This document shows positions 5,374 to 29,066 of a stretch of DNA of 35,102 nt, in pieces. Numbering within the stretch: position 1 is the stretch's first letter; each line of letters begins with the position of its first letter. The notes below the pieces were generated by a model. That model ran no database searches, was not told the DNA's origin, and worked only from the letters and a program-made list of their open reading frames with translations. Made by a program: the position numbers and the translations under genes. Origin of the DNA: Nemertoderma westbladi (Eukaryota > Animalia > Xenacoelomorpha); contig JAUCBJ010003963.1 in assembly GCA_032718475.1 (NCBI GenBank), positions 1-35,102 of the forward strand, written 5' to 3'.

Positions 5374-7418
5374 CGACGGCTTATATTCAAAATGTCCCAA
5401 ATGCCAAATTATACTTTCTTCAGAAAATGATTTTTTAATATTCTAATTCTCCTTATTGACCAATGATGTTGGTTGTTCGGTAAGCGTCTCATTGAAACGA
5501 TGCTGCCTGTATACACTAATGATTTAAACATCACCCCTTACGCTATTCAAATATTTGGCATTTGGGATTTTTTGAAAAAATCGTTTGTCATATGTATTTG
5601 GTTTATGTGATATTGTTTCAAAACATCCCAAGTGTTTATTAGTGTATTGTATTAATAACCATAATGGCAAAAAGTTACCAACAAACTGTGCCATACACAA
5701 AAGAAAACCGAAAGTATGGACCAAAATCAGTTCAACCTCCCTCAACCTTCAACTTCAGTTCTCAATCAAGCTCATCTTCGTCCTCAACTACCGCTACATC
5801 ATCTTCATCAGTCTCGTTCAGCTCATCGGGAACTGTCTCATCTGGCAACATTGCCTCGTATTCACTCCTAAACTCCGGTGGGATTACCTTGTTCTTACAC
5901 AAAGACATGAGATCATTGAACTTCGCAGTACTTATTGGAAGTTGATTGGGGTATGCGCAAGGTGGAAGATCGTACCTGTGCGGATGCCTTCCGCGGTATC
6001 GACGGGGTAGAACAATCTCGTAGACTGGTGCTGATAGTTCAAGTGTCGTCGTATAGTGCATCTCTACTGTTGACCGGTTTCCTGTAGCTGTCTTATGGAA
6101 CATTAGAACTCTAATTTTAGACCACTTCACTTTTCTCCCTTCGTTATTCCTTATTCTTTTGTTTAGAAAATCCTCCTGGATGAGTTTCCAGTCAAGAAAG
6201 TCCGCTGATTTCATCGGAATGACAGTGTATGGTTCATCAAACACTTTAGCATGCCGTATCACAGTGTTCCACTCCGATGGTGCCCAGACTTCCTTATTCT
6301 TTAAGTGAATTTCTATTCGAGCATGGATCGAATCCACTGGCATATTGGTATGGCCTGGAAGTAGGAATATCAGCCTGATGCGAGAAACGTTCGGAAGACG
6401 GATTAGTACTTGATTTATGGTGGCGATTATAATTCGATTCTTATTCTGTCCACTGGTGCTGTCACAGAAAAGGTCTATTTTTTTCACATTAGGGCACCTG
6501 ACATTCAGATCAATAAGACTCTTATGGAGCACAGAAGCCACCTCAATAGATCCCCGCTTCGCCGTGTTCTCTCCCCAGATATAGCAATATCCCTTTTTAG
6601 TTCCACTCTCAAAAACAGACTCATTATAGAAAGCAAACCGGCGGGAATCTCCGATAAGCATCGAGTTAGCGTGTGGTGTGTTAAGAACTTTCTGCAGATC
6701 ATAGCTCAAACACCGGTACTCATCTGTCTCACGTTCTTGGGCTCGTTTAAACACCTGGGCAATGTTTTTTGGCGGCTCTTATTCGAGCATTTGGAGGTCC
6801 CACCGTAGCATCAATGTCCCCATTAAAGGTCGATTCCTCGTCAGTACTAAACCTAAACTCTTCTTCCATTGGCCCACTCCCTCCGTCACTATCCTCGGCC
6901 ACAATAAAACCTCCGAACGACATTGTATTAGCTGATTCGTATTATCGTATAAGACTGGAAGACAGGTTGACTCGCGTATAGTAAGTTGTAACCAGTATTA
7001 TACCGGTACGACTACCGTATAATGAAATTATTGTACAGCCAGCATGTAATCTGAACTGCAGTATTGAATATTAAATTTCCCGCCAAATTATCTACTTAAA
7101 AGCTTGCGGAGCCGGTACACTATTACTACTAGAGCTGCTCGTTACAATTGGGATATTTAGATACATACATTTCTGAAATTATACATCGATAAAGTGAGAA
7201 CTTGGGAGGTTTCAGGGGAATTTGGGATATTTTGAAAAAACCGATTTTCGAAATTTGGCATTTGGGATATTATGTTTTTTGATATAACTTCTAAAATAAT
7301 TGGAATATTGCAAAACCGCTTTGAGTGACTACCTCACCATGATGAGTAGATTGTCATTCACTCATAAAATCATTTTCGACCAATTTGGCATTTGGGACAT
7401 TTCGAAAATAAGCCGTCG
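5374..7418 (-). mobile_element. Sola1 DNA transposon, internally deleted
   Basis: ~36-bp TIRs CGACGGCTTATATTCAAAATGTCCCAAATGCCAAATT and AATTTGGCATTTGGGACATTTCGAAAATAAGCCGTCG. 4-bp TSD ATAT (5370-5373, 7419-7422) fits the AWWT preference of Sola1. Contains a transposase ORF. Confidence 0.85.
5762..6923 (-). pseudogene. Sola1 DDD transposase with intact catalytic core; probable N-terminal deletion and frameshift near 6765
   Basis: Motifs YDLQKVLNTP, CYIWGENTAKRGSIEVAS, LFCDSTSGQNKN and FLLPGHTNMPVDSIHARIE (D-D-D triad). The ATG at 6923 opens an acidic leader (MSFGGFIVAEDSDGG...) that is out of frame with the 330-aa core. Confidence 0.85.
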
Positions 7419-10766: not shown

Positions 10767-11539
10767 CCTTACAGTAGCTCCTTACAGTAGCTCCTTACAG
10801 TAGCTCCTTACAGTAGCTCCTTACAGTAGCTCCTTACAGTAGCTCCTTACAGTAGCTCCTTACAGTAGCTCCTTACAGTAGCTCCTTACAGTAGCTCCTT
10901 ACAGTAGCTCCTTACAGTAGCTCCTTACAGTAGCTCCTTACAGTAGCTCCTTACAGTAGCTCCTTACAGTAGCTCCTTACAGTAGCTCCTTACAGTAGCT
11001 CCTTACAGTAGCTCCTTACAGTAGCTCCTTACAGTAGCTCCTTACAGTAGCTCCTTACAGTAGCTCCTTACAGTAGCTCCTTACAGTAGCTCCTTACAGT
11101 AGCTCCTTTACAGTAGCTCCTTTACAGTAGCTCCTTTACAGTAGCTCCTTACAGTAGCTCCTTATAGTAGCTCCTTACAGTAGCTCCTTACAGTAGCTCC
11201 TTACAGTAGCTCTTTACAGTAGCTCCTTACAGTAGCTCCTTACAGTAGCTCCTTACAGTAGCTCCTTACAGTAGCTCCTTACAGTAGCTCCTTACAGTAG
11301 CTCCTTACAGTAGCTCCTTACAGTAACTCCTTACAGTAGCTCCTTACAGTAGCTCCTTACAGTAGCTCCTTACAGTAGCTCCTTACAGTAGCTCCTTACA
11401 GTAGCTCCTTACAGTAGCTCCTTTACAGTAGCTCCTTACAGTAGCTCCTTTACAGTAGCTCCTTTACAGTAGCTCCTTTACAGTAGCTCCTTACAGTAGC
11501 TCCTTACAGTAGCTCCTTACAGTAGCTCCTTACAGTAGC
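10767..11539. repeat. 13-bp minisatellite (TTACAGTAGCTCC)n, block 1 (~59 units)
   Basis: Directly visible tandem array, with 14-bp TTTACAG variants. Confidence 0.99.
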
Positions 11540-13030
11540 TGTTCGCGGTATTTCAACTTTCCATAACGCGAGTTGAATATTTTTTGTATTGATTTAAAAT
11601 GATTATTCCGATATTACTACTGGGTGCGGGACCATGGGTTTTGGGCACATTCTATAAACTGGGGGCGATTTATGGGCGAACTTTGGGGCGACTTACAGGG
11701 TACGGGACTAATTTCATGTTTATAAGGGCCAGGGGGGGATGGAAAATTCAAGCAGTATTCAGGTTAGCCTGATTACTATTAGGCCCTGGCCAACTTCCTG
11801 CTGCCTGTAGAGGTGGTTTTGGTAACGCGCCAGGCCTAAAGGACAAGGACTGCCCTTAGCGGTCCCTGGCCAACAGCAGTTATTACGAGACTGAAAAGAA
11901 CTCGGAACGCTGACTGCTTGTGTCAGGGATTTGCGACGGGAAACGACACGACAGACCCCTAGCCAAGCCGTACTGGTTCTCGATGATCGTTCCCTTCGGG
12001 GTTCGTGAGGGGTGGGACGGACACGCGAAAGGGTCTACCGACTTACGGAGGAAGGGTTTGACGAGGACTGCCCTTAGCGGTCTCTGGTCAACAGCAGTTA
12101 TTACGAGACTGAAAAGAACTCGGAACGCTGACTGCTTGTAACAGGGATTTGCGACGGGACCGACGACAGACCCCTTAGCCAAGCCGTACTGGTTCTCGAT
12201 GATCGTTCCCTTCGGGGTTCGTGAGGGGTGGGACGGACACGCGACGGGGTCGAAAGACAAAGGACTAGACTCTACTGGCCTACCGACTGTTCGGAGCAGT
12301 TTCTCGGTTGCCGAAGCGACTACGAGCCTGAAAGGGACTCGGAAAGCCTAGGTGGTTGGGTTTCTGCGATGAACCGACGGACCCCTAGCCAAGCCGTACT
12401 GGTTCTCGATGATCGAACCCTTCGGGGTTCGTGAGGGGTGGGACGGACACGCGAACGGGTCCACCGACACGACAGACTCCTAGCCAAGCCGTACTGGTTC
12501 TCGATGACCGATCCCTTCGGGGTTCGAGAGGGGTGGTACGGATACGCGACAGAGTCTACCGACTGGACCGACCCTTAGCCAAGCCGTGCTGGTTCTCGAT
12601 GATCGTTCCCTTCGGGGTTCGGGAGGGGTGGAACGGACACGCGACAGGGTCGACCGACACCGACACTGCGGCATCAAGACTAGGACCGAGGGAAAATCTG
12701 GGGAACATTAGTTAGGCTAAAATCTGAGCGAACAGTGGGTAATTAAATAATATACTGTAGGGATTTATATTGTCGTGTATAATTATTGTGAATATTTGGT
12801 GTATATTGATTTGGGGAAGCCCAAAATTATTCTCAATCAGGTTCAACAGAGTTCAGTTACATTAAAGAGTATATCCAACTAATGCAGCTTTTTCTCAACC
12901 GCAACCTGCATCTCAGAAATCATTCCTTCTCCACAATCAATATCCGGTGACTGGCCGGGGCTCGGTGGTCTGTAAAGTCACGTCTCCAGCATCGGCGTTT
13001 TTCCCCCCTGGTGTTGGGATAACGGCAACA
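11540..13030 (+). repeat. 5' LTR (1491 bp)
   Basis: TGTTCGCGGT...ACGGCAACA, matching 23727-24742. TATA-like TATAAG at 11721, TCAGTT at 12853, ATTAAA at 12861. Confidence 0.95.
11759..12727 (+). ncRNA. Predicted multibranch structured RNA in the LTR: five k-turn/UUCG hairpins and three loop-E/GAAA hairpins inside a long-range closing helix
   Basis: Covarying basal stems AGACCC/GGGTCT, GACCCC/GGGGTC, GGACCC/GGGTCC, AGACTC/GAGTCT and CGACCCT/AGGGTCG. Closing helix TTAGCCTGATTA (11764-11775) pairs with TAGTTAGGCTAA (12709-12720). Folded by eye only. Confidence 0.6.
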
Positions 13031-13032
13031 AA

Positions 13033-13045
13033 ATTGAGAATAATT
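13033..13045 (+). promoter_or_regulatory. Non-tRNA primer-binding-site candidate, complementary to the element's own LTR
   Basis: ATTGAGAATAATT starts 2 nt after the LTR-terminal CA. It is the exact reverse complement of AATTATTCTCAAT at 12825-12837 and 24537-24549. No TGG lies next to the LTR. Confidence 0.6.
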
Positions 13046-13320
13046 AATGTGGTCAATTTTGACAGGGTGTCAAAATTGAGAATAATTATGGTCAATTTTG
13101 ACAGGGTGTCAAAATTGAGAGTAAAACGCAGCCAACTTCAACTGGTGGAAGTTGAGAATCCTTCAATACTCTTCAAAACTCTCTACGTGCTTGCCAGCAC
13201 CCACTACGAGGAAACTCTGGTATTTGAGTTAAGACGAAGTCGTGGTTTAATTAATCAACAAACTCGATCTAACCAACTCGTAGTCGGCAGATCACATATT
13301 TGGAGAGTTGTTAACAGGGA

Positions 13321-13512
13321 ATGGAAGTATCGATCACACCCATTGATATAATCCAAGTTGAGCCAGGAATCTGGCACGTCGAAGTTGAAGTACAAGGAAC
13401 GAACGTCGGACGATTCAGGATTACCGTTCGGGTGGTCCAAGCTGAGTACAATACCTACGAGGAACTGTTTTATGACATCGCGTATCTAGCTATCGACAAG
13501 GCGCTACAATGA
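13321..13512 (+). CDS. 63-aa upstream ORF of the BEL element, stop overlapping the gag start (ATGA)
   Basis: Alternating beta-strand pattern (WHVEVEVQG, FRITVRVV) and an amphipathic helix (YEELFYDIAYLAIDKALQ). TGA 13510-13512 overlaps ATG 13509-13511. Confidence 0.5.
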   Translation: MEVSITPIDIIQVEPGIWHVEVEVQGTNVGRFRITVRVVQAEYNTYEELFYDIAYLAIDKALQ

Positions 13513-16120
13513 CGACAAATAACGTATCCGATACCGACGAGATGGATCACCACACAGACTCGGAAGCCGACGAGGTACCAAACGTCAAGAACATGACCCG
13601 TCGGCTAGGGGCTCTCAAAGGCGGAGTAACCCGAGCGTATCAATGGATGGAGAAACAACTCAAGGGAGTCAAAACCCCCCTCAATGAGGTACAAACTCAG
13701 CTTCAAAGTATCCGAAATATCCTACAGCGGTACGAAAGAATGATACAGGCGTACCAAGAGCTCGTTCCCTCCACCGATCAGGAAAACTACCCCAAGTTTG
13801 AAGAACACGTTGTACATCTAGATGGGTTCCGCAAACAACACCGGAGGACCCTCAGCCTTGTGAGAGGCTATGAAGAACAGTACTACAAGAGAGCTGAAAG
13901 AACAGACGCGGAATCAGTACGAACCTCCAGCATCAGGACAGCAGTACATCGAAAGAGAACGGGGTCCGCTAGAAATCAGCACTCCAGCGCTAGGAGCGAG
14001 ATATCCAGCTCAGCGCGCAGTTCTCAAGGGGGGCCGCCACTCCGAGACCAACTGCGAGAACGGAAGGCATTAGCCCTCAAAGCTCGGATGGAAGATGAGT
14101 ATATTCAACTGCAAGCCGAGCAAGATGTATTAGCCGCCGAAACACAAAAGCGAGAGGCCGAACAAGCGGCCGAACGGCAGGCCGAACAACGCGAACAGGA
14201 GGCGGAACAACATAGACGAGAGGCCGAACGGCAGGCTGAACAACGCAAACAGGAGGCGGAACAACATAGACGAGAGGCCGAACGAGAGATCGAACAACGT
14301 AAACAGGAGGCTGAACAACGTGGACGAGAGGCCGAACGAGAGATCGAACAACGTAAATGGGAAGCAGAAATGCGTAAACAACACGCCGAGGCCCAAGCGA
14401 TTCTCATCCACAAAAAGAATGCGGATATTGCAAAACTCGCGGAATACGAAGCCGCACTTATAGAACGAGATATTCAACTCTACGAGGACTGGGAAAGGGA
14501 TATAGATCAGGAATATGAACCAATCCCGGTACCGGAATTAGAAAAGTCATTTATACTGACAGCGGCGAAACTTCCGAAACCCGAGATCCCGCCTACCAAA
14601 CAGTCTACGTTATCGGCACAAGCACCGGTGTTCCATCCCCCACCGGCTACGCTAAAGAATGAGGAACCTTATATCCCAGCCACCTCTACGGTCACGAGTG
14701 TACCCAAGTACGAGCCTGAAAGGGACTCGGAACGGGACGCCACTCCCCGATCCAACAACCCATTTACATCCACACCACAAACCCGTAGTCGCGTCATCAT
14801 TAAAACTCCACCTATCATTGATCCATCGAGTATGGGAGTGAGTGCCAATAACTATAACCCTCCGAGTCACTCCAGTTCAGACGACGTCAGTATTATCCGG
14901 GTGTTGGAAAACCGCCTTGCCATGCCTAAGATGGAGATCCGCACCTTCGAAGGAGATCCCGTCGATTACCTCAGATTCAAGAAACGGTTCTTTGCGCAGA
15001 TTGGATCAACGGACATAGCCGACGCACAGAAATTGGTATATTTATCGCAATACCTGGGTGACAAACCACGCAGAATTATTGCATGTTTTGAGGGAGGTTC
15101 TCATGAGGCATACTATGACGCATGGAAAACTCTAGATAAAAGATACGGAAATACCGGAACTATAATTAATAAAACTCTAGAGAGACTGATACAGGACGCG
15201 GGATCACTAGGGGACCCACAGAACATCCAGGAATTCTCCGACTCTATGAAGGATGCCTACTATACTCTGAAACCCTTAAATAAGGAGGACCAGGTGAACA
15301 ACATTCTAAACCTCCGACAGATCGCCCGGAAGTTCCCCGGATGGCTACAAAGTAAGTGGGCTTATAAATGCGTAGATCTCCGGCGCAGACATCCAGATCG
15401 AGATCCTAGCTTCCTTGAAATGTCGGCATTCCTGGACGATATCTCCGAAGCCATGAATGACTCGATGTTTTCAAAACAGAGTCTTGCCAAGTTGGACGGA
15501 ATAGAGAGCAACTCCAGGAGTAAGATAACCCCTCCGAAACCGAGATTCCGCCCTCCACCGGTGAGTACGATGGCCATCACCATGGCCGAGGATTCCGACG
15601 ACGAAGACTACGAGGAACCGACATCCGCCGAGGAATGGGCATGTTATCTCGCGAATTGGGCACCCGAAAGGGAAGGCATCACAAATTCCCTGCTCTGTCT
15701 CTTCTGTGGAGAGAAACATAAAGTGGAATTCTGCAGGAAGTTTCAGTTCGCCGAACTCGTCCCACGCTTCGAGGCGGTAATGAAACACCGAGGATGCTTC
15801 CGGTGTCTTGGAACAGGTCACTATGTTCTGGATTGCGACCAAAGATCATGCTGTGCCGTCTGTAACGACCAACGTCATCACACGCTCCTCCACATCCCCG
15901 CGAACTTCGATTTCACTACCCTCCCCTTTCGGATCGAAGCCAAGCGAAGAGGAGAAACAAACCACATTTTCAAAGGAACCCGGACAACCCAACGGAGAGA
16001 AACCAACCCGTTTAAAATCTCCACCGATACACCACAAGTAACAAATATTTCGGCCACGATTAATCTTATAAATCGCTGCTACATGGTCTTCGCAAAGGTA
16101 ATCCCAGTAAGGATTCAAGG
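13509..16120 (+). CDS. gag: BEL/Pao Gag (coiled coil, capsid-like DUF1759-type region, three zinc knuckles); frame shifts into protease near 16120
   Basis: MPKMEIRTFEGDPVDY...QKLVYLSQYL...AWKTLDKRYG; knuckles CLFCGEKHKVEFC, CFRCLGTGHYVLDC and CAVCNDQRHHTLLH; EAERQAEQRKQEAEQHRR repeats at ~14150-14390. Confidence 0.9.
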
Positions 16121-16920
16121 AGTCAGCAAATCCTTGACGCGTTCGCGTTCCTTGATAACGGGTCCGACGGAACCATCATCGACCGGGATTTCCTCGAGCA
16201 ACTCGGCCTAGAATATGAACCTTGTAAACGGCCCATACAAACCATCACCGATAACAGAGAGGTAGAGTCCGGGGAGGTGCAACTCCAGATGGAAGGAGTG
16301 ATGAAGGGCTACGAAACGGTTAAGTTAACCATCAAGAACGCCTTGGTACACACAGACCTCCGAGTGCGGTTCCGACAATCAGCCGAGTATGCCCCCCTCA
16401 TACAATTGGACCGAGACGATGTAGATCTGAGGTGTCCGCAGTTGGACGTAAACCGCATCACCCTACTGATCGGACTTGATACACCGGAACTACACATCCC
16501 CACCGGAGATATCGCCCGATCCATAAAACAGGACGACGGATTTTATGCTGAACGAACAATAATGGGATGGACACTCTGCGGCATTAAGGAAGAAACTACT
16601 GACACCTATACCTACCTTCCCAAATGTCAGATTAAAGAGAATGCAACCTCCGTGGGTTATTGCTCAGCTACGGACATTGACGAGGATTTGTTTCTAGAGA
16701 CTGAGAAAACCCAACAAGAGATGACGAAATATTTTAATCTAGAGACCCAGGAGTTCGCTGAAAAGGACGAAAACCCGTCCGAAGAGGATCAATATTGTAT
16801 GGACGTTCTCGACCAGGCCACGTTCAAAGACGGACACTGGTGTTCACCTATGTTATGGAAGGACCCAAACAAACCAATGGCAAACAACGCCAGCATGGCA
16901 CTTAGGCGACTTAGGGGATT
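16121..16920 (+). pseudogene. Aspartic protease and linker segment of gag-pol, bounded by two frameshifts
   Basis: The shifted frame reads ILDAFAFLDNGSDGTII...LLIGLDTPELH...RTIMGWTLCG...PMLWK...ALRRL. A further shift near 16920 continues LRRLNDQPEIKEKYNTVIQGYL. Confidence 0.85.
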
Positions 16921-19806
16921 CTACGCCGGCTGAATGACCAACCCGAGATAAAGGAGAAATATAATACCGTAATCCAAGGATATCTCGACGATGGATTAGC
17001 AGAAATGGTACCACGGAATGAACTGCAAGGTGGTAAAAGAACATATTATCTCCCAACCCACTATGTGGTAGAAGCCCGGAAGGGTGGGAAAATCCGAGTG
17101 GTAAATGATGCCGCCGCTACGTACCAGGGCGAATCCCTAAACAGTCAGCTTTACACGGGACCCAACATATATAGTACACTCATCGGCGTACTGATCAGGT
17201 TCAGGGAAAACCGGGTAGCATTCACCTGCGACATCAAGACCATGTTTCATCAAGTTCGTACGCTACCAAGAGACTCAGACTGTCTACGTATCCTATGGAC
17301 GGATAAAACACTAACTCAACAGGAGATTAGTCAACTTACGATAAAGGACGTAGACATAATGCGTATGGTTGTCAGGATCTTCGGCGCTAAGGACTCGCCG
17401 GTAGCATGCAGTGACATGCTGAAGAGGACGGCAACTATGTGCGAAAACGAGTTCCCTCCAACCGTCATAGAAACCATCCGACGATGCTTTTACGTGGATG
17501 ATGGATGCGCCGGCGCAGATAATGTGGACGAGGCATACCGGCTAGCAATGGGGATGGTAGAATGTCTAAAGAAAGGAGGTTTTCCGCTCGTGAAGTTCAG
17601 ATCCCACGACAAAACCCTTATGGAAAAGTTTCCGGAGGACATCCGACTGGAAAATAACAAAATGTATTCGGAGGATGTGGAACATCGTGTACTCGGGATT
17701 GAATGGGACATAGAATCAGACGAATTCATCTTCAAATATAAACCCCTACCCAAGCCTATGACAAAAAGGGGATGTTTGTCAATAAAAAGCGCCATCTTCG
17801 ACCCACTAAATTTCATATCTCCAGTAACCTTGGCCGGAATGAACCTGATTAAGGAAATGTGGATAGAAGGACTGGGATGGGACGAAGAGCTCCCCCCACA
17901 CCTCAGCGTCAAATGGAGAAAATGGACGGAGCAGCTCGAACACCTACATCTTATGCGGATACCTAGACCGTTCTTCCTCGATAAACTACCCACCGATATC
18001 TTCCAGCTCCATACCTTCTCGGATGCTTCGAATACCGGAATTGGCGTAGTCACCTTCTTACGAAGACTCAGCAACGATGGAAACGGTGATACGAGCTTCT
18101 TATTTTCTAAAGCCAAGACAGTATCCGGGGAATTCGTAGCAACGATTCCAAGACTCGAGCTACAGGCTGCAGTTTGGGCAGTAAGACAGAATCGCATGGT
18201 CATGCGGAACCTACGGATCCCCATTGAGTCTCAACACTTCTGGGTCGATTCGAGTATAGTTCTCTATTATCTCCACTCTCCATCACGGCGTCACACTACA
18301 TTTGTAGCGAACCGAGCCACAGAGATAAAACAGTGTACCGGCCGAGAACAGTGGCACCATGTAAACGGGAAAGAAAACCCAGCGGACTTATCAAGCCGAG
18401 GCGCCACCCCAAAACAACTCTGTAAAAGTAAACTCTGGCTTACAGGCCCGGAATTCCTACAACAGCCACAATTAACATGGAGTACCCGATTCGACCCCGA
18501 ACTCGATAGCGGAAAATACTCCGAGGACGATAAAGAGATCCGTAAAATCCATAGAAGCAACGCAGTGGAAATTTATAGCTGTCTGACTGAGCCTGCAAAG
18601 GACTCGGGCAGGCACTATAACGTTGCGACGATCATTCAACCAGCGGCGTCTTTACGACAGAACTGGATTATAGCTAATATAAGACAAAGATATTGGATCA
18701 CCCACATCCAGCCACTGATCCGGAAAGTGTTGAAACGTTGCTTTACCTGCAGACGTTATCTAGCGCCACCAATCACCCAAAAGATGGCCGACTTACCAGC
18801 CACCCGTCTACAAGCAGATTCCCCACCGTTCTACGTCACTGGAATGGACTGTTTCGGCCCGTTTACGGTCATCGAACGACGATCCAACATCAAATGCTGG
18901 GGAGCCATCTTCACCTGCCTAAGGTCTAGGGCAATCTACCTAGACATTGTGGTGAACCTTACGCAACACGCATTCATCAATGCTCTGCGTCGGTTCGTGG
19001 CAAGCAATGGGACATGTCGTCACATGTATTCCGATAATGGCACGAACTTTGTGGGAGGAGAAAGAGAACTTGGAGAGGCGATCGAGGGATGGTTTACCGA
19101 TAACACCGCATCCCAAGTCTGGAAGGAACACCAGATACAGTGGCACTTCCAGACCCCCTTAGCACCCCATACGAGCGGGGTATGGGAGAAACTGATCGAC
19201 CTAGTGAAACGGTCAATGCGCGTCGCTCTAGGAGACACCCGGGTAACCCATGACACCCTCCGCACAACATTCTGCGAGATCACAGCTACCCTGAACAACC
19301 GGCCCATTGTCCCTATCCGCGACGACCCCACAGACCTGGAGCCCCTCACTCCTAACCACCTACTGGGGAGACCTAAAACTCAAGTTCTCCCGGAGACAAT
19401 GTTTCCGGATCCCAACGATATTGCGAGACATACAAACTGGAAAAAGGCCCAAGCGTTGGCAGCACATTGGTGGATAATCTGGGCCCAGGAGTACCTCATA
19501 ACCCTCCGGACCAGGAGGAAATGGAACAACACCTACCGGAACGTCGCAGTTGGCGACATGGTACTAGTAAAAGAAGATCTCAAAGATCGCGTTCACTGGC
19601 CTGTGGCGCGGGTCGTGACCATACACCCAAGCAAAGACGGACTTGCGAGGACTGTGACGATACGAACGGCTTCGGGCCACTACCAACGCCCTATCCAGAG
19701 GCTGTGCCTTCTTGAAGGCAATGATAGCGGTGACTCTACGAGAGGTGATAAGTTCCCTACTCAAGATCCTGCTGCAGACATCGGTGACAATGATAAATGC
19801 GTTTAA
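16921..19806 (+). CDS. pol: BEL/Pao Pol: RT, RNase H and integrase, with an in-frame deletion before the integrase zinc-binding region
   Basis: RT: YYLPTH, KIRVVNDA, CDIKTMFHQV, FGAKDSP, YVDD. RNase H: FSDAS, IPRLEL, WVDS, NPADLSSRG. Integrase: GMDCFGP, SDNGTNF, WEKLI. The usual GRL/HP/His-pair segment is absent near 18600-18660. Confidence 0.93.
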   Translation, partial: LRRLNDQPEIKEKYNTVIQGYLDDGLAEMVPRNELQGGKRTYYLPTHYVVEARKGGKIRVVNDAAATYQGESLNSQLYTGPNIYSTLIGVLIRFRENRVAFTCDIKTMFHQVRTLPRDSDCLRILWTDKTLTQQEISQLTIKDVDIMRMVVRIFGAKDSPVACSDMLKRTATMCENEFPPTVIETIRRCFYVDDGCAGADNVDEAYRLAMGMVECLKKGGFPLVKFRSHDKTLMEKFPEDIRLENNKMYSEDVEHRVLGIEWDIESDEFIFKYKPLPKPMTKRGCLSIKSAIFDPLNFISPVTLAGMNLIKEMWIEGLGWDEELPPHLSVKWRKWTEQLEHLHLMRIPRPFFLDKLPTDIFQLHTFSDASNTGIGVVTFLRRLSNDGNGDTSFLFSKAKTVSGEFVATIPRLELQAAVWAVRQNRMVMRNLRIPIESQHFWVDSSIVLYYLHSPSRRHTTFVANRATEIKQCTGREQWHHVNGKENPADLSSRGATPKQLCKSKLWLTGPEFLQQPQLTWSTRFDPELDSGKYSEDDKEIRKIHRSNAVEIYSCLTEPAKDSGRHYNVATIIQPAASLRQNWIIANIRQRYWITHIQPLIRKVLKRCFTCRRYLAPPITQKMADLPATRLQADSPPFYVTGMDCFGPFTVIERRSNIKCWGAIFTCLRSRAIYLDIVVNLTQHAFINALRRFVASNGTCRHMYSDNGTNFVGGERELGEAIEGWFTDNTASQVWKEHQIQWHFQTPLAPHTSGVWEKLIDLVKRSMRVALGDTRVTHDTLRTTFCEITATLNNRPIVPIRDDPTDLEPLTPNHLLGRPKTQVLPETMFPDPNDIARHTNWKKAQALAAHWWIIWAQEYLITLRTRRKWNNTYRNVAVGDMVLVKEDLKDRVHWPVARVVTIHPSKDGLARTVTIRTASGHYQRPIQRLCLLEGNDSGDSTRGDKFPTQDPAADIGDNDKCV

Positions 19807-20100
19807 ACCCTTCTCATCATGTTGACAAACTCTTTTAAACTGTGATTTATCGACAATGAAAATGGACCCCCCTTAAACCAACTGTAACCACGCAATGGTA
19901 TTTGTGTTTCCTCGTGTGTTATGTGGAGTCCAGCGTCACCCTGCAGATGTTTTGACTGACGTAGGGTCGTTTATGTATTGTTTACCCTGATTTTGGTCAT
20001 CGGGACCAACGACTTTGGATTATTGGAAATGGTAAAGATTTGAAGTGGAATTCATTGTATTCATCGCAGTATGTTATGTTGTCCGTTGCGTGCGCAGTTC

Positions 20101-20500
20101 GGGGCGTAGGCGGTGTAACTAGTCCAGCTGTAGATCCCGGATTGCCGCGCAACACCCCCTCTATCCCGTTATTCTGGTGGGTCCATGGTGCATCCACATG
20201 ACTTCGACGATAGAGGGTTTTATGTTTCTCAGTCGCGTTATTCTGGTGGGACCGTTGCGTGGATTTTGGGGCGTAGGCGGTGTAACGAGTCCAGCTGTAG
20301 ATCCCAGAATGTTGCGTAACCCCATCCCACATGACTTCGTCGACTGAGCTTTATGTTGTTGGGAGTGTTATTCTGGTGGGTCCTTGGTGCATCCACGTGA
20401 CTTCACTTCCAGCGTCTTCATTGTCCGTTACGTGCGCAGTTTGGGGCGTAGGCGGTGTAACTAGCCCAGCTGTAGATCCCAGATTGCCGCGTAACACCCC
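20101..20500 (+). repeat. Interleaved direct repeats between pol and ORF3 (three copies each of two motifs), probably RNA stem-loops
   Basis: GGGGCGTAGGCGGTGTAAC...CAGCTGTAGATCCC...CCCC at 20101, 20268 and 20443. GTTATTCTGGTGGG...CCACRTGAC at 20168, 20237 and 20367. Confidence 0.8.
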
Positions 20501-21041
20501 TTCCACGACAAAGATTTCCCAAAGAAGATGATTGAATGTAGTTGGAAATGATGAAAAGGATCAGACAACTCTACTATAAACTGAATGATGACGCGTATGA
20601 TGATGAAAATGTAATGATGCGCACCCTGGTGCTGCGCTTATAACAAATGATGATAGCCGGGGGGCTATAACCCCAATGATGATGTGGAAATAAATGAAAA
20701 TTGAGAATAAATGGTGGAACTAAATGATGAAATATATGTGGAAATAAATGAAATGTGATGAAATAATAAAGAGAAATGAAAAAAGACAAAAAAAGGTATA
20801 AAAAAGTCTGAAGAAAAGAATTGGAAAAAAGAAAGGACATAAAAAGTCATAAAAACTGGTTGGATATTAATGTATAGTTATAGTAACTGTAAATGCTGAA
20901 TGTATTAGCAATAAGATGATAGATGCCTATATAGCAATGTTATTTAATAAACTGAACTGAATTATTCTGCAATCACTATAGTTTCAGACTTTCTGGACTT
21001 ATAATTAACTGATCTAATTTGTAACGGATATAATCGTAAAT

Positions 21042-22334
21042 ATGGACCCAAATCGCCAAATTATCGGCGAATTACGTAACACGATAGATCTACTGGAATA
21101 TTCGCAACCCGGATCTCCTGACTTTGATACAAATTGGAGCACCCTGCTAAATGAGAACGTGCGAGTCGTTAAATTCACCAGGCGAGAGGGACCGGATTCC
21201 AAGAATCTACGAGCCCTCTGGTTAGCCGATGCTAGTACGAGACTGAAAAGAACTCGGAACGCAAAGGCAACCGGAGGGGACGATTCGTCGTTTTGGGAAA
21301 CGTTCCGGCAAAGCATCTACAGATCCCGATGTTTGATCTACGACAACGAGGGAAACGCGACGCCCACCTCGAAAGCGATTACGTTGGCGAGATGTCAAAG
21401 TTTCGTCGACGACAAGAGTACGTACCTCGCCCACTGGGGAAACCTGTCGGAGTGTACGGCGACGCTTCGAGAGGAACGTATATCGACCATCCAAAGTCGC
21501 GACGACTACCAAGAAAAGTACGGGGCGAAAGAATACGGTCGATCCTTGGTCGTCGTCCTCGGAACACTGGACGGTTTGGTATTGGTGTGTCGAATATTTC
21601 CGACGCCCAGACAGGAAGTGCAGGCAGCCGGAGCGATCTGGTTGCTACGTCCGGAAATCCAAAAGATCCTCTTCGACTTCGACGTCATTAAAATCGGGTC
21701 GGATATAAAGGCGGACGTCCGGAACGACTACGCGAACGCTCCCTCAGGAAGAAACCGACGGGACGACCTCAACGCCCTTAGCCATTGCGTCGACACTCAA
21801 ACGCTATTAGCCTGGTTACGATTCGCCGAGTTCATGCGAGGATTCCGGGAGGTAAGACCGACGAAATCCGGGATCGGCTACCTTGCCGTGCTAAACGGCG
21901 GCATCGACTTCAAACCCCAGAAATTCCGGGACTATAATAAAATATATGGTGGATACCCGGGATTAGAAATAAAGAGCGAGCAAGAGGGTCGATGGAAGGA
22001 CGTTGATCGGAAGTGGACGATACACCAAAGGTGGGAGAACCCCGATCGACGGAACTACGTTTACGTCGTTATGGAGTGCTACACCGTCGCTAAGTTTATC
22101 TGTAAAACTCTCGATAACCTTATTACGGCGGTTCCTCTTTCCTTCGTTGACTACGACTGGAATGAGGTCATAAACCACGCATTCAAAGCGGTCGAGAACA
22201 TCACACCGGGAGAGACTAAAATGCTCGCCGTTATCGATTCCTGGGACGAGAGCGGACCTTACGACATCCCCACGATTACCGATCTTCTCGGTGCGGAGGA
22301 GCCTCTGATCTCTTCGGAAGGGGAAGAAATATAG
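21042..22334 (+). CDS. Accessory ORF3 of the BEL element: DnaQ-like DEDDy 3'-5' exonuclease (WRN-exo/EXD/MUT-7/RNase D-like)
   Basis: ExoI CLIYDNEG (D101, E103); SLVVVLGTLDGLVLVCRI; LRPEIQKILFDFDVIKIGSDIKAD (ExoII D225, compare WRN [23 protein letters not shown]); VDTQTL; ExoIII WENP...YVVMECY (Y341, with E345 in place of D). Confidence 0.7.
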   Translation: MDPNRQIIGELRNTIDLLEYSQPGSPDFDTNWSTLLNENVRVVKFTRREGPDSKNLRALWLADASTRLKRTRNAKATGGDDSSFWETFRQSIYRSRCLIYDNEGNATPTSKAITLARCQSFVDDKSTYLAHWGNLSECTATLREERISTIQSRDDYQEKYGAKEYGRSLVVVLGTLDGLVLVCRIFPTPRQEVQAAGAIWLLRPEIQKILFDFDVIKIGSDIKADVRNDYANAPSGRNRRDDLNALSHCVDTQTLLAWLRFAEFMRGFREVRPTKSGIGYLAVLNGGIDFKPQKFRDYNKIYGGYPGLEIKSEQEGRWKDVDRKWTIHQRWENPDRRNYVYVVMECYTVAKFICKTLDNLITAVPLSFVDYDWNEVINHAFKAVENITPGETKMLAVIDSWDESGPYDIPTITDLLGAEEPLISSEGEEI

Positions 22335-22471
22335 CTAAACGAGGGCGTTCTTCTCTCCACCCCGAAGCGACAACTCGAGCCGGAGGCTGCTTACCAACCG
22401 GCCGCCAAACGGGTTGCCTCCACCGAACCAACTATGGAAGCGGGCGTTTCCTCACCACTCGGCTTCGGTAG

Positions 22472-23554
22472 CCCTGCGAGGGAGTTGGTTACTACCTTCG
22501 CGTTAAACGACTTCGGCGATACGTGCCAAAGGTTATCCCCGTATCCTTTCCCGGGTGGCGAAGACTGGTCGTCGGAGATTCCGAGTACCAGGAATCAACG
22601 GACCCGCTCAGCGATATTGGTCGAGAAGGGCCCCAGCGCTGCGCCGACTCCCGACGATCTCCTCGGAATCCCTCCGTCGAAAACCCCTCCGTCATCCACC
22701 GCCAGAAACGGTCGTCCGAGTTGAGGCCGACGGGACACAAAGAAGGTTATCGGAGCGAAGAACTACTACGCCAAAGCCCAGCCTTCCGCGGGCTACCGAC
22801 CACCGCGAATATCCAGAAGAGCGACCGACGACTCGAGTATCACGTCGGCGTCCCGATTCCGATATTTCCCGGTCGAGAGATGCAGTTGGAGGTGTGCGGC
22901 GACTGTGGTTCGGAGCAGTGCCCACGCGGTAGAAGGAATCGGGTTACCGATTCATGCCTCCAGCTCCTCGGGATACTCTATTGCCCATACTGCGCGACAT
23001 CGGGCCACGACGTTTCCGTCTGTCCGATCCTATATAACCTCTGCACCACGTGCGGTTTCCGCGGGCATTCCTCTAGCCCCCGCTGCTATATCAAATGTCC
23101 TACCAAAGACGTTACCACTATGGGAAATATGGTCATGTTTGAAACATACGCAAACAGCCACATAAAGACCAAGGTTCGGAGAAACGCTCGGAATATCGCG
23201 CAGGAGATGGCGTGCAGGTACTTCTCCTTCCCGGAACACCTCCACACGTCGGCCACGTTGCCTTTCCATTACGTGGATTTGTTGCTGAGCGCTGGATTAT
23301 TCGGCCCATTCGAAGTCATTAGACGCTTATACTCGTATAAAGAGGAGTTCGGCGACGGAGAGTGGTTCCTCGAGGCTCGCAACTCCGAGTTGGAACGACG
23401 AACCGATATGCTACCGATGCCATCGAAAGGAAGAGCCGCCAGGAGACAAGCCGAAGCGTTGCTCACGATGGATGTTGACGCTCCTCTACCAGCTATTGCG
23501 ATCGACGAGAGCCGACGGGCGAAGAGGCGAAAGGCGTATCAGAGAAAGAAATAG
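22472..23554 (+). CDS. Accessory ORF4: CCHC zinc-knuckle protein with Arg/Lys-rich C-terminus; start uncertain, possibly the broken C-terminal half of ORF3
   Basis: CPYCATSGHDVSVC (Cx2Cx4Hx4C, 22982-23023), CTTCGFRGHSSSPRC (23042-23086), CGDCGSEQC, and terminal RRAKRRKAYQRKK. The frame is open from 22472 with no ATG for over 130 codons. Confidence 0.7.
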   Translation, partial: PCEGVGYYLRVKRLRRYVPKVIPVSFPGWRRLVVGDSEYQESTDPLSDIGREGPQRCADSRRSPRNPSVENPSVIHRQKRSSELRPTGHKEGYRSEELLRQSPAFRGLPTTANIQKSDRRLEYHVGVPIPIFPGREMQLEVCGDCGSEQCPRGRRNRVTDSCLQLLGILYCPYCATSGHDVSVCPILYNLCTTCGFRGHSSSPRCYIKCPTKDVTTMGNMVMFETYANSHIKTKVRRNARNIAQEMACRYFSFPEHLHTSATLPFHYVDLLLSAGLFGPFEVIRRLYSYKEEFGDGEWFLEARNSELERRTDMLPMPSKGRAARRQAEALLTMDVDAPLPAIAIDESRRAKRRKAYQRKK

Positions 23555-23717
23555 TGGATCGGGATATTCCAGGAACATTTATCGAACATTTATTTTTATA
23601 CATATATATAAACTCTAGGCCAAATTAATTAAAACTATGCAATATTAAATTTGGGTTTTTTATATTGGGAATGACCTACGCAAACTCAATCTACTGACAG
23701 ACTTCACGAAGGTCATT

Positions 23718-23724
23718 GGGGGGG
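23718..23724 (+). promoter_or_regulatory. Polypurine tract (G7)
   Basis: GGGGGGG-AC immediately precedes the 3' LTR TG. Confidence 0.8.
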
Positions 23725-23726
23725 AC

Positions 23727-24742
23727 TGTTCGCGGTATTTCAACTTTCCATAACGCGAGTTGAATATTTTTTGTATTGATTTAAAATGATTATTCCGATA
23801 TTACTACTGGGTGCGGGACCATGGGTTTTGGGCACATTCTATAAACTGGGGGCGATTTATGGGCGAACTTTTTCGAACTAATTTCATGTTTATAAGGGCC
23901 AGGGGGGATGGAAAATTCAAGCAGTATTCAGGTTAGCCTGATTACTATTAGGCCCTGGCCAACTTCCTGCTGTCTGTAGAGGTGGATTTGGTAACGCGCC
24001 AGGCCTAAAGGACAAGGACTGCCCTTAGCGGTCCCTGGCCAACAGCAGTTATTACGAGACTGAAAAGAACTCGGAACGCTGACTGCTTGTGTCAGGGATT
24101 TGCGACGGGAAACGACACGACAGACCCCTAGCCAAGCCGTACTGGTTCTCGATGATCGTTCCCTTCGGGGTTCGTGAGGGGTGGGACGGACACGCGAAAG
24201 GGTCTACCGACTTCCGAAGGAAGGGTTTGACGAGGACTGCCCTTAGCGGTCTCTGGTCAACAGCAGTTATTACGAGACTGAAAAGAACTCTGAACGCTGA
24301 CTGCTTGTACCAGGGATTTGCGACGGGACCGACGACAGACCCCTTAGCCAAGCCGTACTGGTTCTCGATGATCGTTCCCTTCGGGGTTCGTGAGGGGTGG
24401 GACGGACACGCGACGGGGTCGAAAGATAAAGGACTAGACTCTACTGGCCTACCGACTGTTCGGAGCAGTTTCTCGGTTGCCGAAGCGACTACGAGCCTGA
24501 AAGGGACTCGGAAAGGTTTGATTTGGGGAAGCCCAAAATTATTCTCAATCAGGTTCAACAGAGTTCAGTTACATTAAAGAGTATATCCAACTAATGCAGC
24601 TTTTTCTCAACCGCAACCTGCATCTCAGAAATCATTCCTTCTCCACAATCAATATCCGGTGACTGGCCGGGGCTCGGTGGTCTGTAAAGTCACGTCTCCA
24701 GCATCGGCGTTTTTCCCCCCTGGTGTTGGGATAACGGCAACA
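23727..24742 (+). repeat. 3' LTR (1016 bp), lacking ~460 bp present in the 5' LTR
   Basis: Matches the 5' LTR except for about 7 substitutions counted by eye, a short indel near 23870, and absence of the 5'-LTR segment ~12347-12806. Confidence 0.95.
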
Positions 24743-25286
24743 GTAGCTCCTTACAGTAGCTCCTTACAGTAGCTCCTTACAGTAGCTCCTTACAGTAGCT
24801 CCTTACAGTAGCTCCTTACAGTAGCTCCTTACAGTAGCTCCTTTACAGTAGCTCCTTACAGTAGCTCCTTACAGTAGCTCCTTACAGTAGCTCCTTACAG
24901 TAGCTCCTTACAGTAGCTCCTTACAGTAGCTCCTTACAGTAGCTCCTTACAGTAGCTCCTTACAGTAGCTCCTTACAGTAGCTCCTTACAGTAGCTCCTT
25001 TACAGTAGTTCCTTACAGTAGCTCCTTACAGTAGCTCCTTACAGTAGCTCCTTACAGTAGCTCCTTGCAGTAGCTCCTTACAGTAGCTCCTTACAGTAGC
25101 TCCTTACAGTAGCTCCTTACAGTAGCTCCTTACAGTAGCTCCTTACAGTAGCTCCTTACAGTAGCTCCTTTACAGTAGCTCCTTACAGTAGCTCTTTACA
25201 GTAGCTCCTTACAGTAGCTCCTTACAGTAGCTCCTTACAGTAGCTCCTTTACAGTAGCTCCTTACAGTAGCTCCTTTACAGTAGCT
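24743..25286. repeat. 13-bp minisatellite, block 2 (~41 units)
   Basis: Same TTACAGTAGCTCC unit as block 1. Confidence 0.99.
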
Positions 25287-25445: not shown

Positions 25446-28400
25446 TTACATGGCCAATGTTGGGAGACCGGCCCCGTCCTCAAATCCCAGACCGCTACGC
25501 CACCTCGTGCGAGATCCGCGCAGGCAGTGGGACGTACCGCGGACAATGGCGAACTGCACTCGCGTGCGGACCCATCCCATAACGGTGGTGTAGGGTTTAC
25601 CCCAGGCGCTGTGGAGTTTGGTGGCGATAATGCGGAGCAGCATGTTCGCCTGCGGTGCCAACACTCCGTCGCACGAAGCCACGAAAGGTGAGAAGTCGCC
25701 GCGACGAGCTGCTACAGCAGCCGCGTACAACCGCTTCTTCTCATCTTCCGCAGCCTCGAGAATGGTCATAGGAGCACGTTTAGCGTAAGACTCGGCGTCA
25801 AGGTTGGTTGACCTGATATCGATCAACGCCTGAGTCTGTGCGTTAAACGCGCCCCTAATCCCTACATCGCACCGCAGCCCTGCCCCATCACCGTCCTCCA
25901 TCTGCTCCCTCACCACCGGCTCCAACATGACATTGCGCGGCCCCAACGCCAATGCTGCAAGGTCACCCACGGTGTCGCGCAACTCATTGTGGCGCTGGAT
26001 GACGAGGCCGCCCTTCTTACAATTCAAACCATGGTTCAAATCAAAGGCGGCCCCACATCCGTCGCACCGACTGGGAACGCCGAGGAGGGGTTTCCCGTAC
26101 CGAACTGCCACCGCATCGCGGAATTCTCGTGGGGAAAGGTCGTACTGGAGGTCAGCCCGGGGGAGAGAAGAGATCCAGCTGCCGGTTTTATACTCCGCCG
26201 CACGGCGGATTGTGCGGCAGCGGTGTTCGGTCAATGCCCCCATGGCCTCCTCGAACTTGGAAATCTCAGCCAGCTTCCTGGTCTCACCATCCTCCTTCCT
26301 CGCCCTCACTAAACATTCCCGATGAGCTGAGAGATCAAACTCTTCTGTTCCAGCCATCGCACCACAGAGAAATCGGGTCCCTCGGGTTGAGACGAGGTAC
26401 GACGGGTTGGCCTCGGTTACCGGGTTTCGCAGACCCATACCTCCGCGTTGTGGGGACAAACTGAAGAGTTTGCGCTCGTCCGGCGTGATGGACCCTCCGA
26501 GCACGGCGGGGAGAAACCGTTCGGCGATGGCTGTTTCAAGGACGGTGAATTCCTCTTCGCAGTCAGCGGTGACCCTCTGTATGTAGGCCCACTCGCGCTG
26601 CAGCGAGCAAACCATGGCGGAGAAGGCCGCCTGCGGCTGGGAATCTGCCATGGTTGCCAACACGTCAGTCGCATCTACCCATGCCGCTACCTTCGCCCGG
26701 ACAAATTGGCGCCGCTCTCCCGAACTCCCGAGGAACCCACCGAGAAATCGGTGTCCTGTGACCACTTTTACGGGGTGGTCATGGAACACTCTGCGGGCCT
26801 CGTCTTCATGTTCCGGGGCTACCACCAGGTAGCACTTCGACGGCTCGGGATTGTAGCCATAGGATGGTCCAATGTTGAGCAGCCTCTCGAACCACCGCAG
26901 TAGGTCGGCGAGTTCACCCGCCCCGGCCGAGTCGTCGGCGTACCAGCTCTCGCGAACCGATGGGGACCGAAGGTGGCGGATCAACGGGAGGGCTCCGGTG
27001 GCGTACATGAGCATTGCCAGTGGGTCGCCCTGAGTTACGCCCTCCGCACTGAATATGATGGTATCTGTCCCCTTCATCACAAGGATGCTGTGACCACGGT
27101 AGCTATTATAGAGGAATGTGGAGCAACATGGCCACAGGCAACGAGCGTTCCACAATGCGGCCACCCGGTTGAGTGAGTTGAACGCATTCGCCGCATCCAC
27201 CAATAGCACGCCCCAACCCGAGTCGGCGTTGTCCTCGAAGAGTGACGACATCGAGTGTATCGCCGCCTCAACTCCGGCTGAGGTCCCCGCGGACAGCTGT
27301 TCGGCGCCACACGTGATGGTGACGTCGTCCCCTGTGATCACAGCCATTGTGCGGGCCATTATCCGGCGGAGACACTCCCCGATTCCGATAGGCCGCACAC
27401 CCGGACACTTATCCAGCGCTATAAGTCGGCCAGACATCAGCGCACGGACCGACTCCCATGGGACGACAACATTCGCTAGTGTGCGGGTGAATGCAGCCAC
27501 AGTGTCACGAAGTCGCTCGCTGTGGGCGCCGTAGCGGAGCAGGTAATCCCGCCAGCGCGTTGAGTCGCTGCCTGCGGGCCCACTCCCACCGTGGAGCCGC
27601 CGAGCGACATCCTCAATGTGTGCCGCAGTCACGTCGACGTCGACTTTGAGTGGCAGCTCGCTACAATGGATGGTTGAGTCCGAGTTGGGAAGAGCCGCCG
27701 CAGGGTGTTTGTCCTGTAGTACATCGAGGACCTTGACCCTACGCTGACCAACCTCGATGTCCGCTTCTGGTTCCAGAACTCCTCCTGAATCTCGTCCCGT
27801 CACCCAACGGACCGCGCTCCTAACCTTGCCCTCTAGCATGAGCCTCGTGAACACTCGGACTGTGTGGCCGACATCCTTATCTGAGGGCTGAGTTCCACTG
27901 CGCCTCCCTGAAGAACGCAGAGAGGAGCCACGCTCAGCCTCCTGTAACAGAGCGTCTATCTCACCGGAGCGCCACATCACCACCCTGCGGCTGATAAGGC
28001 GGCGAATATCGGCTGCCTTCACGATATTCGGATCTCGGTGCGTGATCAGTGCATCAGCCATCATCAGTCGTTCGGAACGAGCCAAGACGTCCCCCCGACT
28101 GAGTCCCACCACCAAGCTCCGGACCTCGGTGTCGAGGAGGGACACGACATCCCTTCCAACAGAACCACCTGGAAGTCTATATCGGGATCCCTGCAGCTGG
28201 GTGACTCTGCGCCACTGGTGTAGTAGGTGGTCGGGAGGAGCCCCTCTGCCGCTAAGTGGCGCACCAAAAGCTCTTTCCATAAGACCTTCAGGGTCTACAC
28301 TCTGAGGGGGAGCTGAAGCACCAGGTAGCCAGAACTGATCGAAAGTGTCCATAGGGTTGACCCTGCTTCTGTTTGGAAGGAGTGTGGAGCCGACTCCTGA

Positions 28401-29066
28401 CTTTGGAATGGTGGCGTTCGTAGGCGGCGTCTTTTGAAGGGTGGCATTCGAGGGAGGAGTCTGTTGATCGGTGGCGTTTGTGGGCGGCGTCTTTTGAAGA
28501 GTGGCGTTTTTGGGCGGCGTCTTTTGAACGGTGGCATTCGAGGGTGACGTCTTTTGAACGGAGGCGTTCGTGGACGGCGTCTGTTGAATGGTGGTGTTCA
28601 TGGGTGGCGTCTGTTGAATGGTGGCGTTTGTGGGCAGCGTTAGTTGAACAGTGGCGTTCGTGGGTGACGTCTTTTGAACGGTGGTGTTCGTGCGCAGTGT
28701 CTGTTGAACGGCGGCGTTCGCGGGCGGCGTCAGTTGAACGGTGGCGTTCGTGGGAGTAGTCTGTTGAACGGTGGCGTTCGTTCGGGACCCGTCTGTTAGC
28801 GTAACGTCCAGATCCTCCAACGTATCGTCGTTGAGGCTGCCGGAGGGAGAACCTGGGTAAACCGGCTGGGATAGAGACGTTGGAGATAGTGGCTTTACCT
28901 TGTCACTATCAGGCCGCGGCTGTGAAGAAAAAGAAGAAGATCTCCTGCCGTTTTCACAGTTCCCACTCTTTCCGGGGGCGCAATTTCGGCAACCCACTCC
29001 GCTCTTAGCACAAGAGCATGTCTTGCAGCGACCGGTCTTCCCATTGCAGACACAACAGGGCGCCAT
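25446..29066 (-). CDS. 1206-aa RT-RLE polyprotein
   Basis: N-terminal Cys cluster (CCVC..CKTCSC..CRNC..C). RT: GVRPIGIGECLRR, VDAANAFNSLNR, GVTQGDPL, WYADD. C-terminal CDGC...H...C finger, RHNELRD, RCD...IDI, AEDEKKRLY and FSPFVASCDG endonuclease motifs. Confidence 0.93.
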   Translation of the reverse strand: MAPCCVCNGKTGRCKTCSCAKSGVGCRNCAPGKSGNCENGRRSSSFSSQPRPDSDKVKPLSPTSLSQPVYPGSPSGSLNDDTLEDLDVTLTDGSRTNATVQQTTPTNATVQLTPPANAAVQQTLRTNTTVQKTSPTNATVQLTLPTNATIQQTPPMNTTIQQTPSTNASVQKTSPSNATVQKTPPKNATLQKTPPTNATDQQTPPSNATLQKTPPTNATIPKSGVGSTLLPNRSRVNPMDTFDQFWLPGASAPPQSVDPEGLMERAFGAPLSGRGAPPDHLLHQWRRVTQLQGSRYRLPGGSVGRDVVSLLDTEVRSLVVGLSRGDVLARSERLMMADALITHRDPNIVKAADIRRLISRRVVMWRSGEIDALLQEAERGSSLRSSGRRSGTQPSDKDVGHTVRVFTRLMLEGKVRSAVRWVTGRDSGGVLEPEADIEVGQRRVKVLDVLQDKHPAAALPNSDSTIHCSELPLKVDVDVTAAHIEDVARRLHGGSGPAGSDSTRWRDYLLRYGAHSERLRDTVAAFTRTLANVVVPWESVRALMSGRLIALDKCPGVRPIGIGECLRRIMARTMAVITGDDVTITCGAEQLSAGTSAGVEAAIHSMSSLFEDNADSGWGVLLVDAANAFNSLNRVAALWNARCLWPCCSTFLYNSYRGHSILVMKGTDTIIFSAEGVTQGDPLAMLMYATGALPLIRHLRSPSVRESWYADDSAGAGELADLLRWFERLLNIGPSYGYNPEPSKCYLVVAPEHEDEARRVFHDHPVKVVTGHRFLGGFLGSSGERRQFVRAKVAAWVDATDVLATMADSQPQAAFSAMVCSLQREWAYIQRVTADCEEEFTVLETAIAERFLPAVLGGSITPDERKLFSLSPQRGGMGLRNPVTEANPSYLVSTRGTRFLCGAMAGTEEFDLSAHRECLVRARKEDGETRKLAEISKFEEAMGALTEHRCRTIRRAAEYKTGSWISSLPRADLQYDLSPREFRDAVAVRYGKPLLGVPSRCDGCGAAFDLNHGLNCKKGGLVIQRHNELRDTVGDLAALALGPRNVMLEPVVREQMEDGDGAGLRCDVGIRGAFNAQTQALIDIRSTNLDAESYAKRAPMTILEAAEDEKKRLYAAAVAARRGDFSPFVASCDGVLAPQANMLLRIIATKLHSAWGKPYTTVMGWVRTRVQFAIVRGTSHCLRGSRTRWRSGLGFEDGAGLPTLAM
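28408..28780 (-). repeat. 30-bp coding tandem repeat (QQTPPTNATV-like, ~12-13 copies) in the CRE ORF
   Basis: GTGGCGTTCGTGGGCGGCGTCTKTTGAACG-like units on +. Confidence 0.95.

Follow-up and report, generated by a model that had tools for sequence, protein, structure and literature searches.

The long terminal repeat (LTR) of a BEL/Pao retrotransposon of Nemertoderma westbladi carries an array of nine hairpin units, five of which have the sequence of a standard kink-turn and three of which end in a UGAAA cap above a loop-E-type motif; this last domain recurs inside the gag and accessory genes of the same element. The signal rests in these kink-turns, loop-E/UGAAA domains and gene copies, none of which figured in the initial annotation of this DNA. 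We tentatively favor, at slightly less than an even chance, the view that the array is a cis-acting response element with multivalent protein docking, serving the retrotransposon's own RNAs, and that the long-range helix previously proposed to close it is optional at most.

The window, by which we mean the whole 35,102-nucleotide stretch of DNA analysed, contains the element on its forward strand. Its gag and pol domains, LTR ends, target duplication and polypurine tract (G7 ahead of 23727) identify it as a BEL/Pao LTR retrotransposon with the following parts.

11540..24742, forward strand: BEL/Pao LTR retrotransposon with TG...CA ends (TGTT...AACA) and a 5-bp target duplication, GTAGC
11540..13030, forward strand: 5′ LTR, 1,491 bp; predicted U3 to about 11753, R about 11754–12765, U5 to 13030
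13476..19806, forward strand: gag (DUF1759), protease and pol (Peptidase_A17, H2C2, DUF5641); this copy has them in three different frames
20079..20503, forward strand: second array of three D and three E units (z −4.8), located after pol and before the accessory gene
21042..22334, forward strand: accessory gene, exonuclease-like part, with protein P0124 as relative
22472..23554, forward strand: zinc-knuckle part of the accessory gene, in a different frame and preceded by a stop at 22332–22334
23727..24742, forward strand: 3′ LTR, which keeps units U0, B1, A1, B2 and A2 and most of C

The domain matches were to DUF1759 (7.5e-15), Peptidase_A17 (1.2e-38) and, on the integrase side, DUF5641 (3.4e-28), and the closest pol relatives are animal elements of at most about 40% identity. 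The 3′ LTR has no equivalent of 12347–12800, a block that was probably deleted after insertion. All seven LTR–LTR substitutions fall within a 614-nt array block (11733–12346 versus 23902–24515) and none in the U3 and U5 blocks (370 nt; p 0.05), for which conversion and polishing error are possible explanations. At the expected tRNA primer site, no TGG adjoins 13030; a duplicated 39-bp palindrome lies there instead. The 39-bp unit, which holds a perfect palindrome, occurs in 2.4 copies over 13029–13124, and no other local fold in the element is as strong (z −5.7). The insertion site is a 13-bp minisatellite. The minisatellite CCTTACAGTAGCT (13/14-bp), found at 10767–11540, 24740–25286 and 29273–29607, surrounds both this element and a second one, which encodes RT (ORF 25446–29114, minus strand); a common target preference is possible. 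Elsewhere in the window lie an ORF with DUF7869 (5762–6778, minus strand; E 1.5e-10) and, at 30291–31034 and 32234–32908, a Pro/Tyr-rich 24-bp coding-like repeat together with a 42-bp tandem array.

Two signals of the 5′ LTR bracket the array.

11721..11726, forward strand: TATA-like TATAAG, unchanged in the independent copy X1
12742..12747, forward strand: candidate poly(A) signal ATTAAA, followed by a GT-rich tract; a second ATTAAA lies at 12861

The initial annotation had noted the TATA-like TATAAG at 11721, where TATAA indeed starts, and had raised the idea of a very long R region. The latter fits, as the array is bracketed upstream by the TATA (11721) and an Inr-like GCAGT (11752) and downstream by the ATTAAA (12742), and the two outer signals are identical in X1. 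AATAAA was absent from the whole LTR in a sequence scan. If the TATA, Inr-like and ATTAAA elements are true signals, R would span about 1,010 nt and equal the array; the borders of U3, R and U5 were placed solely from these signals. The array corresponds to the predicted R region, about 1 kb long, of a BEL/Pao LTR. A 5′ leader of about 1,750 nt is predicted, with 11 upstream ATGs; five of these start codons lie in kink-turns, one in each (11983, 12199, 12409, 12504 and 12599). A splice donor at 12740 was ruled out, as it is altered in X1.

The annotation had described about nine hairpins between the arms of a long-range helix, and nine units, each predicted to fold independently, were found there in the order U0, B1, A1, B2, A2, C, A3, A4 and A5.

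11779..11841, forward strand: unit U0, a hairpin whose base is B-like (z −3.0)
11853..11940, forward strand: unit B1, basal UA/GA loop, long stem, loop-E-type motif and UGAAA cap (z −4.1)
11953..12037, forward strand: unit A1, basal UA/GA loop, kink-turn (1b at 11985) and UUCG hairpin
12071..12158, forward strand: unit B2, loop-E/UGAAA class
12169..12251, forward strand: unit A2, kink-turn at 12201
12276..12375, forward strand: unit C, a G.U-rich stem with a B-type cap and a basal GA/GA loop
12379..12463, forward strand: unit A3, kink-turn at 12411
12474..12558, forward strand: unit A4, kink-turn at 12506 (3b.3n = C.A)
12569..12652, forward strand: unit A5, kink-turn at 12601 (3b.3n = U.G)

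The units are 90–96% alike. A basal motif proposed earlier for most of the hairpins, TAGC...GCGA, closes seven of the nine (B1, B2 and A1–A5), but C has GAGC...GCGA and U0 has none; a basal UA/GA loop is likewise common to seven of the nine. The linkers contain ACCGAC-like words, and their 116 bases are U-poor (A 35, C 27, G 28 and U 9%), which makes the earlier label A/C-rich roughly right. The region as a whole is not stabler than shuffled sequences (z −1.14, 3/20 as good). In the second array, the D units have a GUA/GUA loop and one C-G to U-A change, and the middle E unit bears a D unit on top.

Several known RNA classes were considered and rejected. Rfam covariance models applied to 11500–25000 gave three matches at E 2–3 and none in the LTR array, ruling out known self-cleaving ribozymes and other Rfam families there. 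A Pol III cassette (tRNA-, VA- or miRNA-like) was rejected: there were no tRNA genes, the single T4 run lies in U0, and the B box, judged by eye against the consensus, is not kept. A kissing-loop dimer is disfavored, the 4-nt UUAG loop being weak although the 14-nt arm is self-complementary. Pairing of U5 with the A-unit stems was set aside too: it is strong in the folding model, but this model leaves kink-turns unscored.

Units A1–A5 have the standard kink-turn sequence, consisting of a C stem, a 3-nt bulge, G.A and A.G pairs and an NC stem; by sequence they qualify as standard kink-turns, whose kinking and binding of an L7Ae-family protein are putative. A pattern scan of all 35,102 bases returned seven matches on the plus strand, all of them A units (five in the 5′ LTR and two in the 3′ LTR), and five scattered matches on the minus strand; shuffles of a single A unit yielded a match in 51/3000 and 70/3000 cases. 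The bulge and both GA steps never vary. The 3b.3n position is U.U in A1, A2 and A3, and with the C.A of A4 and the U.G of A5 it is never Watson-Crick, while −1b:−1n and 4b:4n are both C:G. According to passages of PMC4382518 and PMC5689011, C:G at these two positions favors kink-turn folding without protein. The A-unit kink-turns would thus be Kt-7-like and foldable without protein, rather than box C/D-like. Their stems are paired in 119 of 120 cells, with two-sided changes in 2 of the 24 pairs, a level reached by 9 of 500 shuffles; these shuffle counts of the covariation tool are not probabilities, and the covariation counts here are small because one element's paralogues and a single independent copy were compared. 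The only A-unit change in X1 sits at the non-canonical 3n position. A box C/D snoRNA, defined by RUGAUGA and CUGA boxes with guide strands and a G:C pair at 4b:4n, was rejected because 4b:4n is C:G here and no Rfam match was obtained. A SECIS element has an AUGA/GA core followed by an 11–12-bp helix with an apical AAR, and serves a UGA that is recoded; the A units are core-like but have a short stem with UUCG, and again no Rfam match.

In units B1, B2 and C, a CGAG/CUCG stem with a UGAAA cap, which we take to resemble a T-loop, tops the loop-E-type motif. The consensus of the loop E / bulged-G motif is AGUA opposite GAA. Two further copies of the domain lie in genes.

14697..14742, forward strand: loop-E/UGAAA domain in the gag coding sequence; match at 14709, 24/24 nt identical to unit C, with its own closing stem
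21213..21280, forward strand: loop-E/UGAAA domain in the accessory gene; match at 21236, 27/27 nt identical to B1/B2, with a long stem of its own (z −5.3)

In sequence, all five copies fit the loop E / bulged-G motif, with A-N-U-A opposite G-A-A between stems. The UGAAA-domain pattern had eight matches in the window, all within the element, and none in 100 shuffles. Across the five contexts the loop-E positions A, U, A, G, A and A are invariant, and the bulged base is G in gag and the accessory gene and U or C in the LTR. The closing stem varies on both sides with 27 of 28 cells paired (10/500 shuffles as high). The stability of the gag copy is unremarkable (z −0.7 to −0.9), and the two gene copies sit in different reading frames. 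Recent template switching could also account for their exact identity with the LTR over 24–27 nt. In X1, the last loop-E A is replaced by C, and a change just upstream, in the stem of the domain, converts U.G to C-G as judged by eye.

X1 is an 886-nt contig of the sequencing run X1 (share 0.09, run type guessed), whose contigs are uninformative on RNA ends, strand and level. It is about 95% alike and skips 11947–12576, which may reflect a real shorter LTR or an assembly repeat collapse; the shorter array still has one B and one A unit, and a second contig of the run shows yet another unit order. Eight substitutions fall in U0, B1 and A5: three keep a pair, three are unpaired, one is at 3n and one breaks a G.U. 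Petals (the hairpin units) are not clearly more conserved than flanks (8/249 versus 32/489 changes, p 0.06; substitutions alone, p 0.44). In public viral and metagenome contigs, the A-unit pattern had no match and the pol and exonuclease queries gave no confirmed locus, and the UGAAA pattern had no match in viral contigs. The case for conservation is therefore built on paralogues and one independent copy. A targeted literature search, mainly of open-access texts without supplements, returned no precedent for a kink-turn or loop-E array in an LTR.

The two pieces of the accessory gene match the two halves of a single 648-aa protein, P0124, at 28% identity each, which offers a lead, not a firm assignment, to a protein with a 3′–5′ exonuclease-like domain and zinc knuckles. 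The exonuclease-like call draws on this one relative and on Atlas scores of 0.86–0.93, with Pfam below its pass level, and the first catalytic D-x-E motif is unclear in this copy, unlike in P0124. A PDB sequence search returned zinc knuckles alone for P0124 and nothing for the exonuclease part, and a single-sequence structure model of the accessory protein had a pLDDT of 33. A search with the accessory ORF gave one match among 1.84 billion representatives, with none added by an alignment query, and none of 4291 candidates matched. The split of the gene by the stop and the frame change may represent decay, assembly error or recoding. An acceptor-like TTTCAG lies 55 nt ahead of the accessory ATG.

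In the docking-element reading that we favor, transcription would start near 11754 and end near 12765, and the array would thus stand at both ends of every transcript. The loop-E/UGAAA domain of B1, B2, C and the gag and accessory copies is the candidate binding site; this is the best reading of a domain retained at the RNA level both in the LTR and in two mRNAs. Its likeliest ligand would be the element's own candidate exonuclease-like/zinc-knuckle protein, several copies of which would be loaded on the array, while the five kink-turn domains would fold unaided or bind a host L7Ae-family protein. The resulting RNP may protect the RNA or aid its export, translation or packaging, in a Rex-like manner.

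The initial annotation had centered instead on a single helix that would close the whole array into a flower.

11758..11775, forward strand: 5′ arm of the proposed long-range helix, by complementarity
12709..12728, forward strand: 3′ arm of the proposed long-range helix, by complementarity
11754..11777, forward strand: rival 5′-terminal hairpin, with 9/10 pairs here and 10/10 in X1

The complementarity of 11759–11775 with 12709–12727 is there as described, with 17 pairs and one AA bulge; adding 11758–12728 brings the helix to 18 pairs, four of which are G.U. The two 41-nt ends paired better than 1992 of 2000 shuffles, the other eight being as good. When the petals were fixed and the flanks shuffled, a fairer control than shuffling both ends, at least 18 closing pairs appeared in 26 of 712 folds and at least 14 in 112 of 712. 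The predicted helix probability was 0.8–1.0 as long as the RNA ended at or before 12770 but 0 for most ends beyond that (12780 and 12870–13300; 0.02 at 12800 and 0.41 at 12830), such that a 20-nt shift of the 3′ end takes it from 1.0 to 0. In longer RNAs the 5′ arm, itself a 14-nt near-palindrome contained in the rival hairpin, is predicted to pair locally, this hairpin replacing the helix. The unconstrained minimum-energy fold differs from the flower (−383.0 versus −361.2 kcal/mol), and forcing the helix across the whole R–U5 costs only 4.6 kcal/mol. Both arms are retained in X1, with one substitution each and one extra base in the bulge; the substitutions break 2 of the 18 pairs, leaving 16 and a 2x2 loop, and the one at 11773 completes the rival hairpin. 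As the two changes oppose each other, they may form a tolerated loop; X1, the sole independent copy compared, has no compensatory change in the helix. The 3′ LTR, lacking 12347–12800, has neither the 3′ arm nor the first ATTAAA. With 26 of 712 controls equaling it and so strong a dependence on the 3′ end, closure of the array into a flower is not well supported. These results give weak support to the helix as at most an optional and likely unstable state, and the chances that it is a fortuitous pairing are about even.

The helix bears most directly on an alternative that we consider unlikely, namely that, in line with the discrete ncRNA put forward in the initial annotation, the 5′ LTR and solo LTRs make a separate polyadenylated RNA of about 1.0 kb, closed by the helix, which is a decoy or scaffold in trans for those same proteins. 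The helix exactly brackets the predicted R and is highly probable only if the RNA ends by 12770, just past the ATTAAA, and 16 of 18 pairs survive in X1 despite the 628 nt missing between its arms; moreover, silencing by cap proximity would be difficult for a poly(A) signal lying 1 kb away. These points are offset by the shuffled-flank controls that equal the helix (26/712) and by X1, in which both arm substitutions break pairs and one completes the rival 10-pair hairpin; that hairpin would also form first during transcription, and close ends are, in passages of PMC6193969, general to long RNAs. A further reading, which strikes us as rather improbable, is an element-encoded RNP system of a new kind in which an LTR RNA of about 1 kb with a variable number of petals acts as a sponge, its kink-turn and loop-E/UGAAA domains titrating the exonuclease-like protein, the gag and accessory copies serve as operators, and the transcript end switches between 5′ hairpin and helix.

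We rate lower still a neutral origin, in which slippage and template switching multiplied two or three hairpins into the array and the helix arose by chance. The 90–96% likeness of the units, their copy-to-copy variation in number and the whole-region z of −1.14 are what such an expansion would leave, but the two-sided stem changes, the invariant motif positions and the separate stems around the gag and accessory copies speak for more than that. Slightly less likely again is a role of the arrays in the translation of gag and the accessory gene, as internal entry sites or enhancers: the leader of about 1,750 nt with its 11 upstream ATGs and the placement of the second array ahead of the accessory gene would suit it, but the arrays stop 540–850 nt short of the start codons, the UGAAA domain also occurs within coding sequence, and the TTTCAG near the accessory ATG offers splicing instead. 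Least likely is the proposal that the compact domains are roadblocks to exonucleases, the element's own included, that set the ends of stable RNA fragments, since, for all that the element encodes a 3′–5′ exonuclease-like domain, that exonuclease ORFs have been proposed to process the 3′ ends of element RNAs (in part of PMC5408684) and that the array would occupy the 3′ end of every transcript, the unclear D-x-E motif in this copy, unlike P0124, weakens it and the coding-sequence copies suit binding sites better than stops.

The docking element that we favor has partial counterparts in known systems. Pao, of the same retrotransposon group, reportedly has tandem repeated units in R, which are short simple repeats; here, three classes of 60–100-nt motif domains are found, and also in genes. 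The A units share the 3-nt bulge, tandem G.A/A.G and U at L3 with the kink-turns of Kt-7, the SAM-I riboswitch and box C/D RNAs, but stand five in tandem in a retroelement LTR; at −1 and 4 their pairs are C:G, like those of Kt-7, whereas box C/D has G:C (a passage of PMC5689011). Bdelloid LTR elements with a DEDDy exonuclease ORF3 likewise have an extra exonuclease-like gene behind pol, but belong to the Juno and Vesta lineages, whereas the present element is BEL/Pao and has zinc knuckles as well (parts of PMC5408684, whose main text does not contain the word ‘hairpin’). If the docking reading is true, the unexplained exonuclease ORFs of retrotransposons would gain an RNA partner open to experiment, with the 46-nt domain and the accessory protein as a pair for direct testing.

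A 1-kb R of repeated tertiary-motif domains would depart from the short and simple stem-loops of which R regions otherwise consist; their length in retroviral groups is 11–150 nt (in the part of PMC3601003 drawn on), compared with about 1,010 nt predicted here. The nearest parallel is the HTLV-1 Rex response element and the HML4 R-region stem-loop, each a folded LTR R element tied to an accessory protein that the element itself encodes (passages of PMC2664473). With the Rex/Rec type, whose bound protein drives export, the array would share a folded multi-stem R element if its predicted folding and R borders are right, but it is made of repeated modules and its protein binding is putative; moreover, in the Rex/Rec type the fold bridges an upstream AATAAA in U3 to the cleavage site, whereas here the ATTAAA lies behind the helix. 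If true, the docking reading would provide BEL/Pao elements with a layer of RNA control like that of Rev/Rex.
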